A stretch of DNA of 20,110 nucleotides from contig JBAYFY010000002.1 of the NCBI GenBank assembly GCA_041666945.1, forward strand, positions 192,701 to 212,810. The letters are read 5' to 3'. This DNA is from Candidatus Buchananbacteria bacterium (GTDB taxonomy: Bacteria > Patescibacteriota > Patescibacteriia > 2-01-FULL-39-33). The notes below the pieces were generated by a model. It worked only from the letters and a program-made list of their open reading frames with translations, had not been told where the DNA came from and did no database searches. Positions 6,250-15,735 of the stretch are shown in pieces (position 1 is the first letter of the stretch; every line of letters begins with the position of its first letter). A program made the position numbers and the translations under genes.

Positions 6250-7164
6250 TCAGTTTTGCACTTCCCAGCCAAAACTGATATTTATGTCAATCCCTCCGAG
6301 TGCGTTCGACTCCACATAGGGGAACGAGAGCACGCTGGAGAAATTGAAGTTATTTCCCCAGTCAATGTCACGGACGATGAGCGGCAAATCGCAGTACACA
6401 TCATTGCCATCGCCGTCAATGATGTAGAGCACGTCGCCGACGAAGTTCAGCGGTAAGTAGGCCTTGAATACCATCTCGGCCTCACCCCAGAACCAAGAGA
6501 CATAGTAACTGGTGCCGTCCGAAGAAACCAGCGATGACTGGCCATAACCCCATTCATCGGTCTGATACCAGCCGGGAAGGCCGGTGATCGTGAACTGGAA
6601 CGGATAATAGTAACCGAAATTCATCACCAAATTCTCGTTCCGGTTGACGCCCCCCTCCACCAAAACATCTTTCCAGCCAGACAACAGCTGGTTGCCGTAG
6701 TTATCTTGAAAAGAAATGGAAAAACTGTAATTCCCGGGTCGAATTCCTCCACAATGAGCGCGGAACTGGTGGTCAATAATCGGTATATAGAAGGAGTAGC
6801 AGCCAGCAGCACCAGAACCACCGCCACCGCCCTTACCCATTTCCACTCCATCAACTCCATCATCAGTGGGATACAAGTAGATGTAGATGCGGGTGGCCTG
6901 TTCTTTGAGTGAATCCCCAATTTCTTGGAGATTCTCTTGAGTCAATCCAGCGATGCCGTCTTGACCGCCGCCTTTTTCCAGGGACTTGGTCACCTCGTCG
7001 ACGAATTCCTCGTCAATTTTGTCAACGACCTGGGACAGGTCGCCTTCTACCCAGAATCCACCTTCGATTTCGGGAATGGGCGGGCAACCAGCCAATGTTA
7101 CTGAGAGGGCGGCCAGGATGGCGACAACGACAACGGACATGGGCAGTGGCGCGTAGTAACACAT
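6250..7164 (-). CDS. Hypothetical lipoprotein, Gly- and aromatic-rich (Y/W/F/N/D), with atypical GC3-rich codon usage
   Basis: A strong SD (AAGGAGG) lies 8 nt before ATG 7164. The lipoprotein signal is MCYYAPLPMSVVVVAILAALSVTLAG|C with a lipobox. The mature protein carries a GGGGGSGAAG linker, a DGDGND motif and many Tyr/Trp/Gly residues. I recognise no family. Confidence 0.7.
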   Translation of the reverse strand: MCYYAPLPMSVVVVAILAALSVTLAGCPPIPEIEGGFWVEGDLSQVVDKIDEEFVDEVTKSLEKGGGQDGIAGLTQENLQEIGDSLKEQATRIYIYLYPTDDGVDGVEMGKGGGGGSGAAGCYSFYIPIIDHQFRAHCGGIRPGNYSFSISFQDNYGNQLLSGWKDVLVEGGVNRNENLVMNFGYYYPFQFTITGLPGWYQTDEWGYGQSSLVSSDGTSYYVSWFWGEAEMVFKAYLPLNFVGDVLYIIDGDGNDVYCDLPLIVRDIDWGNNFNFSSVLSFPYVESNALGGIDINISFGWEVQN

Positions 7165-10171: not shown

Positions 10172-10573
10172 TCATTTTGCTTCTTCACCTTCCGGCTGAT
10201 AATCAAGCACGCCCGTGGCATGCTTTTTGTCGGCATAAAGAGTCATGCGATTATTAGCAATAAACAAATGACCAAAAAGATGGACGCATTCGTCATTAAC
10301 CATCAACCACTTAGCCACCTTGGGATATCTCTGAGCGGAAAAAGTCGCTTCCAATTCATAAACTTTGGTGAATTTTTCCTCACGCAATAATTCACACTTT
10401 TTGAATGTTAATTCCACCTCTTCTTGGCCATAATATAATGGCCCAATCCAAAAGTGGGCGGTGAACCTAATGGCTTGTGAGCCAACGTCTTTCAGGATAT
10501 TGATCAATAGAACATCAAGCACATTCATTGGCGGACAAAAACATAAACGCCTCGGTTCATCCTGTTCGGGCAT
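10172..10573 (-). CDS. Hypothetical protein, 133 aa (unrecognised), second gene of a coupled pair
   Basis: ATG 10573 (MPEQDEPRRLCFCPP...) is preceded by AAGGAGG at a 7-nt spacing, and that SD lies inside the end of the upstream ORF. The GC content is about 39%, against about 48% for neighbouring genes. No family recognised. Confidence 0.55.
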   Translation of the reverse strand: MPEQDEPRRLCFCPPMNVLDVLLINILKDVGSQAIRFTAHFWIGPLYYGQEEVELTFKKCELLREEKFTKVYELEATFSAQRYPKVAKWLMVNDECVHLFGHLFIANNRMTLYADKKHATGVLDYQPEGEEAK

Positions 10574-10787
10574 TGTCGACCTCCTTTGGTTCATATGTCC
10601 AATGAATCCCATCTCTAACTAGAGATAAAATCCTATAAGTTCCTTTGGGAAATTCATACTCTCCCCTTATAACCTCATTAAAATCATCTCTTAGAAAGAC
10701 AACCACATAGCCGCCATGCTTACCCTCTTTGGGTTGCATTTCTAACATTCGATCATAATATTTTGCTAATTTTTCAGACATTAGCAT
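10557..10787 (-). CDS. Hypothetical protein, 76 aa (unrecognised), first gene of a coupled pair
   Basis: An SD (AAAGGAG) lies 7 nt before ATG 10787. The product MLMSEKLAKYYDRMLEMQPKEGKHGGYVVVFLRDDFNEVIRGEYEFPKGTYRILSLVRDGIHWTYEPKEV looks beta-rich. It overlaps the next ORF by 17 nt and is low in GC. Confidence 0.55.
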   Translation of the reverse strand: MLMSEKLAKYYDRMLEMQPKEGKHGGYVVVFLRDDFNEVIRGEYEFPKGTYRILSLVRDGIHWTYEPKEVDNARTG

Positions 10788-11854: not shown

Positions 11855-11886
11855 ATAATTATATTTGTTCTCTATGCTATATGGCT

Positions 11887-11915
11887 ATTTTAACAAAATT
11901 TCCCGGCTTTTACAA
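11887..11915 (-). promoter_or_regulatory. Candidate promoter for the PfkB kinase (TTGTAA-17-TGTTAAAAT)
   Basis: The minus strand reads TTGTAA AAGCCGGGAAATTTTGT TAAAAT. The hexamers and TGT are identical to those of the lepA promoter. Confidence 0.5.
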
Positions 11916-11920
11916 TAAAA

Positions 11921-12556
11921 TTAATCTAAATCTTCAACTCCAACGGCGTTTTCAATTTTGTATTCTCCCACTCTGGTACGTACCAAGTCAGACATGTAAG
12001 CGCCGGTCTTCAATACTTGACCCAAATCGCGAGCCAAAGATCTGATATACACGCCAGGACCGCAAACCACTCTGATTTTTAGATTGGGATATTCATACTC
12101 AAGCAATTCAATCTCTTTAATCGCCACCGGCCGCGCCGGCAATTCTAATTTTCGGCCTTGGCGCGCCGTTTTATAGGCCGGACGGCCGGCGACTTTAATG
12201 GCGGAAAACTGCGGCGGCACTTGTTTAATTTCCCCGATGAAACTGTTAATCGCTTCTGCTATTTCCTCCCGGCTGGGCTGATAATCGCCAATAACGGTCT
12301 TTGCGCCTTCCTCATCATCCGTATTGCTGACCGCGCCCAATTTGATATCCGCCACATATTCTTTTTCTTTGGCCACCACTTCGGAAATTGTTTTTGTCGC
12401 TTCCCGGCCGACGGCCACGACTAAAACGCCGGACGCCAACGGATCCAATGTACCGGCATGGCCGACTTTCTTGACGCCCGTCCGCCGTCTGACTTGAGCG
12501 ACAATATCAAATGAAGTCGGGCCTTTGGGTTTATTGATATTTAAAATATTTTTCAT
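11921..12556 (-). CDS. truB: tRNA pseudouridine(55) synthase TruB (short form, no PUA domain)
   Basis: A 211-aa protein with the catalytic motif KVGHAGTLDPLASGVLVVAVG, and a conserved TruB N-terminus (INKPKGPTSFD). Confidence 0.9.
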   Translation of the reverse strand: MKNILNINKPKGPTSFDIVAQVRRRTGVKKVGHAGTLDPLASGVLVVAVGREATKTISEVVAKEKEYVADIKLGAVSNTDDEEGAKTVIGDYQPSREEIAEAINSFIGEIKQVPPQFSAIKVAGRPAYKTARQGRKLELPARPVAIKEIELLEYEYPNLKIRVVCGPGVYIRSLARDLGQVLKTGAYMSDLVRTRVGEYKIENAVGVEDLD

Positions 12557-12625: not shown

Positions 12626-12665
12626 ACAAAAAAGCGGACTTTATAAAAGACCGCTTTTATTTTCT
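12626..12665. terminator. Bidirectional terminator downstream of the 94-aa lipoprotein gene
   Basis: GCGGaCTTTTATAAAAGaCCGC is a palindromic stem flanked by AAAAAA and TTTTATTTT. On the minus strand it is followed by TTTTTTG. Confidence 0.5.
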
Positions 12666-12721
12666 GTCATCCCGGTCGTTTAGAACAATCACTTAATGAT
12701 CCGGGGATGGCAATATTATTG

Positions 12722-13006
12722 CTATAACCCTAAATCCTTATTGGACAAATCCTTTTGCTCAAAACCGGTGGTTTTAACCGTCTCCATGGTCGCATCCAAA
12801 TCTTTTAAGGATTGATCAATATCCGCTTCCGTTATCGCCGGCTCTTCCACCGGTTGAGTTGCTTGATTTTCAGTTGTCGGGTTTGTCTGTTCTTCAAGCT
12901 GATTGTCTGGCAAATCGTTTTTTTGCGGTAGGCCGCAACCGGCCAATAATCCGCCGGCCATAAATACCACTGATAACAAAGCTATTGATGATAAGTATTT
13001 TTTCAT
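12722..13006 (-). CDS. Small acidic lipoprotein (94 aa), hypothetical
   Basis: MKKYLSSIALLSVVFMAGGLLAG|C carries a lipobox, and the mature part is low-complexity and rich in Q, E, T and P. Its start lies 4 nt after the stop of the upstream gene. Confidence 0.6.
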   Translation of the reverse strand: MKKYLSSIALLSVVFMAGGLLAGCGLPQKNDLPDNQLEEQTNPTTENQATQPVEEPAITEADIDQSLKDLDATMETVKTTGFEQKDLSNKDLGL

Positions 13007-13010
13007 ATTT

Positions 13011-13715
13011 TTATTGCGTTAAAGTGGCGGCATCCGCGGATGATGTTGAACCGTCAAGATTAGGCATAGCCGATTGAGGGGCGGCCGGCGAAGAAGTGGC
13101 GGTACCGGCGGCCGCGGCCTTTATGGCGGCTCTGATTTTGGCTATCTCGGCTTTGATTGTCGTGTTGTAATAAGTTCTGATATCCAAAGCATCGGCATTG
13201 ACTGTTTTTAAGGCGGTTTGGGCTTCTTTCAGTTGAGTTTTGAATTGGCCGGCCGACTTGCCGCAAACTGATTCCTGGCTCTGCTTGAGCAGGGCGATAT
13301 AAGTGGCGTAATCATCGTTAAATTTCTTTATTTTTACGTCCAAAACAGCCAAATCCGCCTTAAGCGCCGTCACATCAATGCCTCGAGCCGCCAAACGATC
13401 GGCCATGCCTGACAATTTATCCTTAAGCGCCTGATAGGCCTGCATGTGCCTGACTTTGCTGTTGTCAAAGTTGGAAACTTTAATCTGAATTTTTGATTCA
13501 ATTACCGGACAACGGGCAATCGCTCCGGCCGCCACCTTTTTAATCAAATTGACGGTGGCGGTGGCTTGGGCGGCCACAGCTTGCGGCTTAGGAACCTTGC
13601 CGAACTTGAGATCCGCCGCATTCAGGGCGCCGGTGGATGATCCTGCCGCCATAACCCCCTCGGCCAGCAATAAAGGCAATAAAGCCAGAATTAACAAAAA
13701 GATTTTTTTCTTCAT
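13011..13715 (-). CDS. Secreted alpha-helical protein (234 aa), hypothetical
   Basis: The signal peptide MKKKIFLLILALLPLLLAEGVMAAG is followed by an Ala/Lys/Leu-rich, probably coiled-coil body with 2 Cys. It lies 11 nt downstream of the membrane protein gene. Confidence 0.6.
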   Translation of the reverse strand: MKKKIFLLILALLPLLLAEGVMAAGSSTGALNAADLKFGKVPKPQAVAAQATATVNLIKKVAAGAIARCPVIESKIQIKVSNFDNSKVRHMQAYQALKDKLSGMADRLAARGIDVTALKADLAVLDVKIKKFNDDYATYIALLKQSQESVCGKSAGQFKTQLKEAQTALKTVNADALDIRTYYNTTIKAEIAKIRAAIKAAAAGTATSSPAAPQSAMPNLDGSTSSADAATLTQ

Positions 13716-13726
13716 ATTTTTCTAAA

Positions 13727-14533
13727 TTACTTTTTAATCTGTTGCAAGCTCTGATACAGCAAAACCAGATAAGCCAGATACATCGGGCCCAAAACCAATT
13801 GAACCAAATCCAATAAAATCGTAGCCGTCTCCTGATTGATTAAACGCAATAAACCGATGACAAACGACACCAAAAATACCACCAACAGCCACAAAAGCAA
13901 GCGGCCGAAAACCGCCCACCAATAACCCTTCGTCAATTCCCGGCTTCGTTTAAGCGATTCAATAATCGGCTTGTCTTCAAAAATCAAAACCACGGTCGCC
14001 AAACAAAACATCACTGCCCAAAAAATACCGGGCACGATAAATAAAATCAAACCGCCGATGGTAATTAAGCCGAAAAGCAAGCCAACGACAAAATATTTAA
14101 CCCAATATTTAATCGAGCCGTTTAGCGCTTCCCGCAAATTCAATGCCCCGTCTGATTTTAAAATCAACAACTGGCCTATTACCATGGATAATGATATTAT
14201 AAGTCCTAAAACGCAGATTACAATTACAAGGAGGACTTTGCCCCATAAAGGCATGATGTCAAAACCGCCAGCCGTAACAAAAGAAAAACCCAAAGTTGAG
14301 ATAATCGGATCAGTAGCTTTGGCCGTTGCCGCCTCGCTGGCCGGCAAATAGCGGATTACTCCGAGCGCCCAAGCCAATAATGTTGCGGCGCCCATGACAA
14401 TCATGGGAATTAAAGTGAGAACGACTAACTTCTGCCAATTTTTTACATATAACCCCCAAGCGCTTTTTAATAAAGATCCGGGTTCTATTAGTATCGGCTT
14501 AATGCCTGGGTTAACGTTTGGATTGTTGTCCAT
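13727..14533 (-). CDS. Polytopic membrane protein (~6 TM), hypothetical
   Basis: Several hydrophobic helices are present (LVVLTLIPMIVMGAATLLAWALGVI, VLLVIVICVLGLIISLSMVIG, FVVGLLFGLITIGGLILFIVPGIFWAVMF, LLLWLLVVFLVSFVIGLL). The start is set at ATG 14533 (MDNNPNV) because the longer ORF-track start at 14566 would cover the predicted extended -10. Confidence 0.6.
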   Translation of the reverse strand: MDNNPNVNPGIKPILIEPGSLLKSAWGLYVKNWQKLVVLTLIPMIVMGAATLLAWALGVIRYLPASEAATAKATDPIISTLGFSFVTAGGFDIMPLWGKVLLVIVICVLGLIISLSMVIGQLLILKSDGALNLREALNGSIKYWVKYFVVGLLFGLITIGGLILFIVPGIFWAVMFCLATVVLIFEDKPIIESLKRSRELTKGYWWAVFGRLLLWLLVVFLVSFVIGLLRLINQETATILLDLVQLVLGPMYLAYLVLLYQSLQQIKK

Positions 14534-14554
14534 ATATATTTGTATTATGGCTGT

Positions 14555-14586
14555 ATTATAGCACAAACGGAAAATAACAGTAAAGT
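14555..14586 (-). promoter_or_regulatory. Candidate extended -10 promoter (TGcTATAAT) for the envelope operon
   Basis: The minus strand reads GTTTGTGCTATAAT, 21 nt upstream of ATG 14533. The -35 (TTACTG) is weak. Confidence 0.4.
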
Positions 14587-15735
14587 TTAGCGGAGGCGCA
14601 TCTTTTTCCGGCGAGCCGAATTGCCAAAACGGTGCGCCTCATCCCTGGCTTGCTTGAGCGTAATCAGCATATTAACGGCTAATTCGCGGACATTTGGGGG
14701 CGTGCCGGCGGAATATACCAATTTGTCTCCGCCGAATTTGGATAAACCCAAAAGCGGCTTGTTGATTTTTAATCGTTTGAATAATTTAACAATCCGGCTG
14801 ACTTGCGGACGGCCGCCGTCAATTAAAAAAATGTCGGGCCAAGGCCATTCCGGATGATTAAGGCGGCGGCTGATCATTTCTTCCAGCGCTTGCAAATCGT
14901 TATTGGTCGCCGTCTTGATATTGAACAGGCGGTATTGCGACTTATCCGGCTGACCGCCGACAAATACGGCCATGGCGCCGACAGTTTCTTTGCCGGACAA
15001 GTGCGAGATGTCATACGCTTCAATGCGCCCGGCGCTGTGGCCGGAAATTTCATCGCGACTGATGAGTGAAGCGTCGGAGATGTGGCGGAAGGCCTTGGCC
15101 AATCCCGGATTCTCCCGGGTTAATCTTTTTACTAATTGTTTTTTCTTGCCGGCAAACAGCCAAATGATATTGCGGATATTCTTTTTGTATTCTTGCGGCG
15201 TAATGGCGGAAACGCAAACGCCCGGACATAAGCCGATCTGGTAATCAAAGCAGGGTTGGCCGCTATCCGGCTGGCAAGTGGAATAAGGAAACAAGCGGCG
15301 AATAATACGCAAGGCGTTTTTAATCAATGTGGCGTTTAAATACGGCCCGAAAATACGCGCCTGTCCCGGCGAATACTTGTTTAAGTCCTTGCCACGGACG
15401 ATAATCGGCTTGGGCCAATCGCTTTTGGCGATTACCACGTAAGCGAATGAACGGTCGTCTTTGTCTTTAATATTGTATTTGGGCCAGAACTTTTTGATTA
15501 GGTTGGCTTCCAAAATTATCGCCTCTAAAACCGAATCGGTTTTTTCACTTTTGATATTTTTGGCCAATGATACCATCTCCCTTATCCGCGGCTCCACATC
15601 CGGACGGAAATATTGTAAAACCCGCCGGCGCAAGTTGGTGGCGCGACCCACGTATAATATTTTTCCCTGGCCGTCCAACCAGCGATAAACGCCGGGCGTT
15701 AAAGGCAATTTGCCGGCCTTTTCTTTGAGATTCAT
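14587..15735 (-). CDS. uvrC: UvrC-like excinuclease, compact form (GIY-YIG, Cys-rich region and RNase-H-like endonuclease domain; no C-terminal HhH)
   Basis: A 382-aa protein with the GIY-YIG motif GVYRWLDGQGKILYVGRATNLRRRVLQYF, the Cys cluster CQPDSGQPCFDYQIGLCPGVC, and the UvrC endonuclease domain (RIEAYDISHLSG...VGAMAVF...YRLFNI...DIFLIDGGRPQ...RDEAHRF). Canonical UvrC is about 600 aa. Confidence 0.75.
   Translation of the reverse strand: MNLKEKAGKLPLTPGVYRWLDGQGKILYVGRATNLRRRVLQYFRPDVEPRIREMVSLAKNIKSEKTDSVLEAIILEANLIKKFWPKYNIKDKDDRSFAYVVIAKSDWPKPIIVRGKDLNKYSPGQARIFGPYLNATLIKNALRIIRRLFPYSTCQPDSGQPCFDYQIGLCPGVCVSAITPQEYKKNIRNIIWLFAGKKKQLVKRLTRENPGLAKAFRHISDASLISRDEISGHSAGRIEAYDISHLSGKETVGAMAVFVGGQPDKSQYRLFNIKTATNNDLQALEEMISRRLNHPEWPWPDIFLIDGGRPQVSRIVKLFKRLKINKPLLGLSKFGGDKLVYSAGTPPNVRELAVNMLITLKQARDEAHRFGNSARRKKMRLR

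Follow-up and report, generated by a model that had tools for sequence, protein, structure and literature searches.

FtsEX/MacB-type ATP-binding cassette (ABC) systems have extracytoplasmic coiled-coil partners (EnvC, PcsB, CwlO), and in a different setting the LD motifs of paxillin dock on the FAT four-helix bundle. Elongated three-helix bundles have been solved for apolipoprotein A-IV (3s84), the N-terminal domain of SipB (3tul), the pneumococcal PspA (2pms) and the Borrelia PFam12 lipoproteins (8s2p). For YciC/UPF0259, a named family whose function is barely known, the sole functional hint found was that overexpression of YciC in E. coli lowers intracellular D-alanine (PMC10299036). The locus described here bears some likeness to each of these. 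It lies in a 20,110-nucleotide stretch (the window) of a metagenome-assembled genome of Candidatus Buchananbacteria (Patescibacteria). On the minus strand, a gene for a membrane protein of 268 amino acids (positions 13727–14533) is followed by one for a helical protein of 234 amino acids (13011–13715) and one for a small acidic lipoprotein of 94 amino acids (12722–13006), with gaps, read from the sequence, of 11 nucleotides (13716–13726) and 4 nucleotides (13007–13010). The helical and small proteins are 100% identical to MFA6594071.1 and MFA6594070.1, respectively, both annotated as hypothetical. A previous examination of the letters and open reading frames (ORFs), hereafter the sequence-only reading, had placed the same three genes and gaps at these positions and proposed that the products assemble into one extracytoplasmic structure. 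Because only the last two genes stay together beyond Buchananbacteria, the real unit of interest is a two-gene module. We consider it highly probable that the function resides in this pair, to which the membrane gene is a local addition. A literature search returned no relevant description of such a gene pair in Patescibacteria.

The pair was followed with a degenerate DNA pattern built on the core motif of the helical protein, which retrieved 43 metagenome stretches, and with hidden Markov models (HMMs) of all three proteins, run over 64 sequences (63 further ones and the window). The helical gene was present in the 63 further sequences and in the window, corresponding to 40 clusters at 70% identity. 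An ORF carrying the partner motif was located directly 3' of it and on the same strand in the window and in 50 of the 63 further sequences, and matches to the motif HMM occurred in the 64 sequences solely next to the helical gene. Most of the loci without a match were contig ends or had in this place a divergent protein, likewise small, anchored and acidic, with the ending ...LDxLG. The gap between the two genes ranged from −4 to about 57 nucleotides, with frequent stop/start overlaps. In the window, where it measures 4 nucleotides, the motif was recognised with E=2.1e-15 and the helical family with E=8.5e-74. A reciprocal search from the partner found 31 small proteins; four loci were fetched for three of them, and a helical-family gene was directly upstream in all four, with overlapping stop and start codons. 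The genes upstream of the pair vary and include MutS, SerRS, MATE, MFS, ZIP, ABC permeases, GyrI-like proteins and UvrC. One Buchananbacteria-type contig had no detectable partner (L018, 2105–2359). Immediately past the helical gene it ends in what by eye resembles a piece of a transposase gene on the other strand, and the absence is probably due to an assembly break at a mobile element, with no true loss.

The distribution of the membrane gene was much narrower. Eleven Buchananbacteria-type loci keep the triad in the order pyrG, L27, uvrC, triad, truB, pfkB, PPDK, and the order of the three genes is kept in 19 further sequences in addition to the window, many of them duplicates (about 9 clusters at 70% identity). 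The HMM scan showed the membrane gene beside the pair only in Buchananbacteria-type loci. Of the triad, five genomes from more distant species keep together just the middle and the last gene, downstream of MutS, SerRS, MATE or MFS genes. Three related loci (L025, L043 and L045) contain uvrC, the helical gene, the partner and then truB or pfkB, and have no membrane gene. In L025 and L045 the promoter element TGnTATAAT is found 38–46 nucleotides 5' of the helical gene. As these two loci keep the promoter and the pair without the membrane gene, this gene appears to have been either inserted or lost between promoter and pair. These observations bear on the possibility that all three products build a single structure, extracytoplasmic or in the membrane, in which the polytopic protein would serve the other two as membrane base. 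The two short gaps, the single conserved promoter before the membrane gene and the conserved triad order speak for such an assembly. However, the whole stretch from pyrG to PPDK is syntenic in these genomes, so that conservation of the triad within Buchananbacteria is not independent evidence; moreover, the membrane gene is not beside the pair in about 30 other lineages, and it is missing in the three relatives having the same uvrC and truB flanks. We therefore regard a three-part assembly as improbable. The gene order on which it was based is conserved within Buchananbacteria, as part of the syntenic region, and outside this group only the pair persists.

The helical protein, product of the middle gene, begins with a signal peptide (residues 1–24). 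Then come a low-complexity stretch that varies, the conserved three-helix core and a disordered tail rich in S, T, P and A. Its signal-peptide-like N-terminus reads MKKKIFLLILALLPLLLAEGVMA/AG, the slash marking the end of the signal peptide. It can be divided into MKKK, FLLILALLPLLLA and VMA/AG, with a hydrophobic segment at residues 3–27. Signal-like N-terminal segments were found throughout the family, and the protein is predicted to be exported by the Sec pathway. It had no match in Pfam, NCBIfam, PHROG or PADLOC, and neither a profile search against PDB sequences nor Pfam scans of the family members returned anything relevant. The family itself is large. An exhaustive profile search collected 1687 cluster representatives (50% identity) at E≤1e-3, 1134 of them at E≤1e-10, and a further profile search of the protein database with the family alignment added few members.

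The conserved core domain, delimited by three family alignments and by AlphaFold2, covers approximately residues 66–206 (13098–13520, minus strand), of which about 130 residues are shared family-wide. Its signature is RCPxIExKI...FDNxKxxH...KFxxDYxxYI...CGxSxGxF...DIRxYY. The protein has exactly two cysteines, Cys69 in helix 1 (codon 13509–13511) and Cys151 in the turn between helices 2 and 3 (codon 13263–13265). Both are near-invariant: they are invariant in two of the three family alignments and present in at least 90% of the sequences in the third. Exactly two cysteines were also counted in 129 of the 165 proteins retrieved first, which belong mostly to the helical family. With an alignment of 13 sequences, AlphaFold2 gave a mediocre model (predicted local distance difference test, pLDDT, of 65.7). 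With 58 sequences the pLDDT rose to 81.4, and the 10-residue blocks over residues 71–200 averaged at least 90. The helices of this model span residues 45–110, 116–150 and 155–206, and the core fold can be predicted with confidence to be an elongated three-helix bundle. The helix register puts residue 151 level with about residues 70–75 of helix 1. A Cys69–Cys151 disulfide is thus plausible, as Cys151 would be level with Cys69, and such a bond probably staples the bundle, judging from the register and not from atomic coordinates. The export signals present on both proteins of the pair, together with the two near-invariant cysteines, fit an extracytoplasmic disulfide. The likeness of the model to the solved elongated bundles mentioned above is generic. 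Foldseek matches were weak and non-significant (E>1), with FAT domains among them. The pair is outside all the curated libraries searched, its fold is generic, and we count it among a known general kind, membrane-tethered helical surface proteins, rather than as something categorically new.

The last gene encodes a small acidic predicted lipoprotein. Its signal peptide, MKKYLSSIALLSVVFMAGGLLAGC, ends with the lipobox L-A-G-C at residues 21–24 (12935–12946), which fits the pattern [LVI][ASTVI][GAS]C; no lgt or lspA gene was found in the window. Beyond the lipobox, the protein is made of a disordered stretch rich in Q, E, T and P and of an acidic C-terminal segment. The sequence-only reading had described the middle product as secreted and helical with two cysteines, and the last one as a small acidic lipoprotein with a Q/E/T/P-rich tail, and both descriptions agree with the present results. 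Partner alignments revealed a conserved C-terminal motif in the acidic segment (residues 58–94; 12725–12835). The motif opens with an acidic, amphipathic segment whose hydrophobic residues recur at i, i+4, i+7, i+11 and i+14, a spacing which fits an amphipathic helix, and closes with F....LS[DN]xxLG[LIV] at the C-terminus. Among 24 partners, in which about 35 residues are kept, the consensus starts with [DE]xDxx-hydrophobic-xx-hydrophobic-Dxx-hydrophobic-xx-hydrophobic. The motif sits at the C-terminus or at most two residues from the end, and the exact ending varies (GL, GI, GIQ, GINK or LG). The anchor of these 24 proteins also varies: about 15 have a cysteine at the lipobox position, and 7 have an uncleaved N-terminal transmembrane helix, preceded in several cases by a basic stretch (N-in, C-out). 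Between anchor and motif lies a disordered, acidic linker of variable length (30–70 residues). Two other interpretations of the C-terminal segment were considered and rejected. A sortase-type or PEP-CTERM-type sorting signal does not fit, as neither a hydrophobic helix nor a basic tail follows the motif, and a supposed resemblance of the motif to the turn between helices 1 and 2 of the helical protein was dismissed, hhalign having given only signal-peptide similarity.

With an interchangeable anchor, a linker whose length differs between proteins and a terminal peptide that stays fixed, the partner looks like a tether that carries a docking peptide. We propose that the locus is a lineage-specific three-gene unit made of two unrelated parts, in which the partner would tether the bundle; on balance, this is the explanation that we favour for the whole. 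The first part is a UPF0259/YciC-type polytopic protein, whose gene is intercalated only in Buchananbacteria-type genomes, where it separates the promoter from the gene that follows. The second part is a pair that is widespread in the ultra-small Patescibacteria. Its first gene encodes the Sec-exported protein with the elongated three-helix bundle, and its second gene a small protein predicted to be held on the outside of the cell membrane by a lipid or by an N-terminal transmembrane helix. The acidic C-terminal motif would dock onto the mostly basic helical bundle, and the soluble secreted bundle would thereby be kept at the cell surface on a flexible leash, where it might act as a surface scaffold or binding module. 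Over 20 pairs, the net charge of the motif ranges from −4 to −15 (mean −8) and that of the helical core has a mean of +5, a complementarity which counts for docking. It is possible, and we advance it tentatively, that the motif contacts the bundle. The proposed docking of an acidic, leucine-rich peptide, placed at the end of a disordered linker, onto a basic bundle resembles the binding of paxillin to FAT; the parallel is an analogy which implies no homology, and it concerns another compartment and other organisms.

Several points weigh against the tethered-bundle explanation. The binding of the motif to the bundle is something that we infer, and the complementary charges are a weak argument for it; in a small number of pairs the core has no net charge or is slightly acidic. 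Close gene packing is common in the compact genomes of Patescibacteria, and both families may be co-inherited vertically. In addition, the membrane gene shares the promoter in this lineage, and a local functional link is possible. The first of these points would equally suit two surface components that are expressed together and make no contact. The partner, mostly disordered and acidic, might for example bind cations or act as a wall spacer, and the helical protein might be released or bound elsewhere, its own low-complexity tails being able to make other contacts. Such an arrangement would, however, hardly require the strict adjacency and frequent start/stop overlap seen in about 40 lineages, nor the retention of a short C-terminal motif under a changing type of anchor, both of which exceed the normal needs of co-expression. 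For these reasons we think it unlikely. The terminal position of the motif, never more than two residues from the end of the chain, and its hydrophobic-G-hydrophobic ending bring to mind another role. PDZ proteases read hydrophobic C-termini, and the LG[LIV] end could be a tag for a PDZ-type envelope protease or processing enzyme, the pair then taking part in envelope signalling or quality control. A gene for a CtpB-like PDZ/S41 protease does lie about 5 kb from the pair in a related locus (L003). The terminal residue is nevertheless not fixed, as seen from the five endings listed above, and the gene of this protease was not near the pair in the other loci examined, which makes a protease tag scarcely probable.

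The neighbourhood of the pair in a single divergent lineage recalls the FtsEX/MacB-type systems. In L023 (686–4486), and likewise in L036, an operon encodes an ABC ATPase, a 339-amino-acid protein without family match and a MacB_PCD/FtsX permease. The end of this operon is overlapped by the pair (overlaps of −8 and −4 nucleotides), so that the gene of a secreted, coiled-coil-like protein stands beside a permease of this type. The members in these two loci also have N-terminal stretches rich in N-x-S/T. By analogy, the helical protein could be an extracytoplasmic accessory of transporters, its transporter in each lineage being the neighbouring membrane protein, and MATE, MFS, ZIP and ABC-2 permeases or the UPF0259 protein are indeed encountered upstream of the pair in other loci. 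These transporters are, however, from unrelated families. Cytoplasmic housekeeping genes (SerRS, UvrC, GyrI-like, adenylate-kinase-like) occupy the upstream position in at least as many lineages, and the pair mostly has its own promoter-like element. Unlike EnvC, PcsB or CwlO in their systems, the helical protein has no hydrolase, LytM, CHAP or NlpC domain, and in the window no transporter of that type adjoins the pair. A role as transporter accessory is accordingly very unlikely, and the tethered bundle remains the explanation that we prefer for the pair.

The membrane protein, product of the first gene, showed 5–7 hydrophobic segments in the hydropathy scan, or about six transmembrane helices. 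The Kyte–Doolittle segments are located at residues 34–63, 88–127, 144–191 (two segments), 203–235 and 238–259, a layout which fits the approximately six transmembrane helices of UPF0259/YciC proteins; about six hydrophobic segments are also present in E. coli YciC (PMC10299036). The Pfam profile UPF0259/YciC (PF06790) matched with 42.1 bits for a gathering score of 31.4 (E=1.2e-10), and aligned residues 109–260 of the protein with profile positions 91–246 of 248. The score with the NCBIfam YciC equivalog (NF002774) was 51.2 bits, far from the cutoff of 227, from which it follows that the protein is no orthologue of E. coli YciC. Weaker matches were obtained with GPDPase_memb and with DUF975 (PF06161), the latter reaching 12.5 bits for a gathering threshold of 34.8. 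The membrane proteins of relatives have precomputed DUF7847 and UPF0259 matches. Having passed the Pfam threshold, the protein is not family-less: it belongs, as a distant member, to the UPF0259/YciC superfamily. The count of about six transmembrane helices in the sequence-only reading was accurate, and so was its suggestion of a DUF975/YciC-like fold. Its statement that none of the three proteins matches a recognised family holds for the middle protein, which belongs to no curated family, and fails for the membrane protein. The novelty that it would have seen lost with a well-characterised family is thus only partly affected, as the membrane protein falls in a named family, yet one of barely known function. 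Taken alone, the membrane protein adds little, as it only extends the poorly understood YciC/DUF975 group by another distant member. In the scans for phage and defence functions, the sole PHROG match was a weak one, between the membrane protein and a family of unknown function; PADLOC gave no matches, and the locus could not be assigned to a phage or anti-phage defence system.

In this lineage the three genes likely form one transcription unit. A promoter-like site (14555–14584, minus strand) was identified right after the uvrC stop by consensus scan and by its conservation. It is composed of a −35-like TTTACT (14584–14579), an 18-nucleotide spacer and the extended −10 element TGcTATAAT (14563–14555), with 10 of 12 consensus matches and the TG present. 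The sequence TGnTATAAT is invariant in six diverged Buchananbacteria loci, 22–28 nucleotides 5' of the ATG, whereas the UvrC proteins of these six relatives are merely 60–90% identical. The mechanical ORF of the membrane protein spans 13727–14566 and opens with a TTG at 14566. As this TTG overlaps the −10 element and the homologues begin with MDKN..., the likely start is the ATG at 14533. At the other end of the unit, the 126 nucleotides 3' of the last gene fold into two hairpins (z = −3.07 against shuffled sequences). Hairpin 1 (12668–12709) pairs CATCCCCGG with CCGGGATG and has no U run. It is not kept in relatives, where truB starts 5–60 nucleotides downstream. Hairpin 2 (12628–12657), AAAGCGGuCUUU-uau-AAAGuCCGCUUU, has its stem-loop at 12657–12631 followed by UUUUUU and resembles an intrinsic, Rho-independent terminator; one internal mismatch kept it from being detected by a strict terminator scan. 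A single transcript is indicated by the conserved promoter on the 5' side, the gaps, which are too small for another promoter, and the terminator-like hairpin on the 3' side. The extended −10 promoter, the two successive hairpins and the operon had all been announced by the sequence-only reading and are retained here. Scans for Rfam families and tRNAs showed nothing relevant, and no Rfam family matched anywhere in the window. The element TGnTATAAT is also present before the helical gene in L028, L042 and L047, again within 38–46 nucleotides. More broadly, several Patescibacteria lineages have it upstream of first genes at comparable distances, which suggests that an extended −10 of this form is the norm in these genomes.

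Patescibacteria represent a large share of bacterial diversity, and the majority of their envelope proteins are still without a role assignment; their genomes contain many unexplained families comparable to this one. The present analysis narrows a vaguely defined three-gene operon down to a defined two-gene module with more than 1000 sequence clusters, a confident fold, a conserved cysteine pair and a short, conserved C-terminal peptide. The pair could reasonably be proposed as a new protein-family entry. Should the tether be true, it would provide a simple rule for the retention of a secreted protein at the surface of wall-bearing, lipoprotein-poor cells. If it is false, the pair would still be a useful lineage marker.

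A few further features of the window and of related loci were noted. The UvrC encoded just upstream of the three genes (14587–15735) has just 382 amino acids, with a GIY-YIG domain and an RNase H-like endonuclease domain. Canonical UvrC has about 600 amino acids, and by its length the window protein appears to be devoid of the C-terminal parts; the short form is kept in relatives (383–396 amino acids). TruB (11921–12556) is also short (211 amino acids), with TruB_N and no more of the C-terminal domain model than its first 39 positions. In L001 (6724–7293), L003 and L005, a Sua5/YrdC gene is located between truB and pfkB, and in the window (11855–11920) and in L007 truB is followed directly by pfkB. 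Three ORFs of the window, at 1599–2255, 6250–7164 and 10172–10612 (218, 304 and 146 amino acids, respectively), were without a Pfam match at E≤0.001; their neighbours are genes of central metabolism encoding an ADP-forming acetyl-CoA synthetase-like protein, PPDK and a PfkB kinase.

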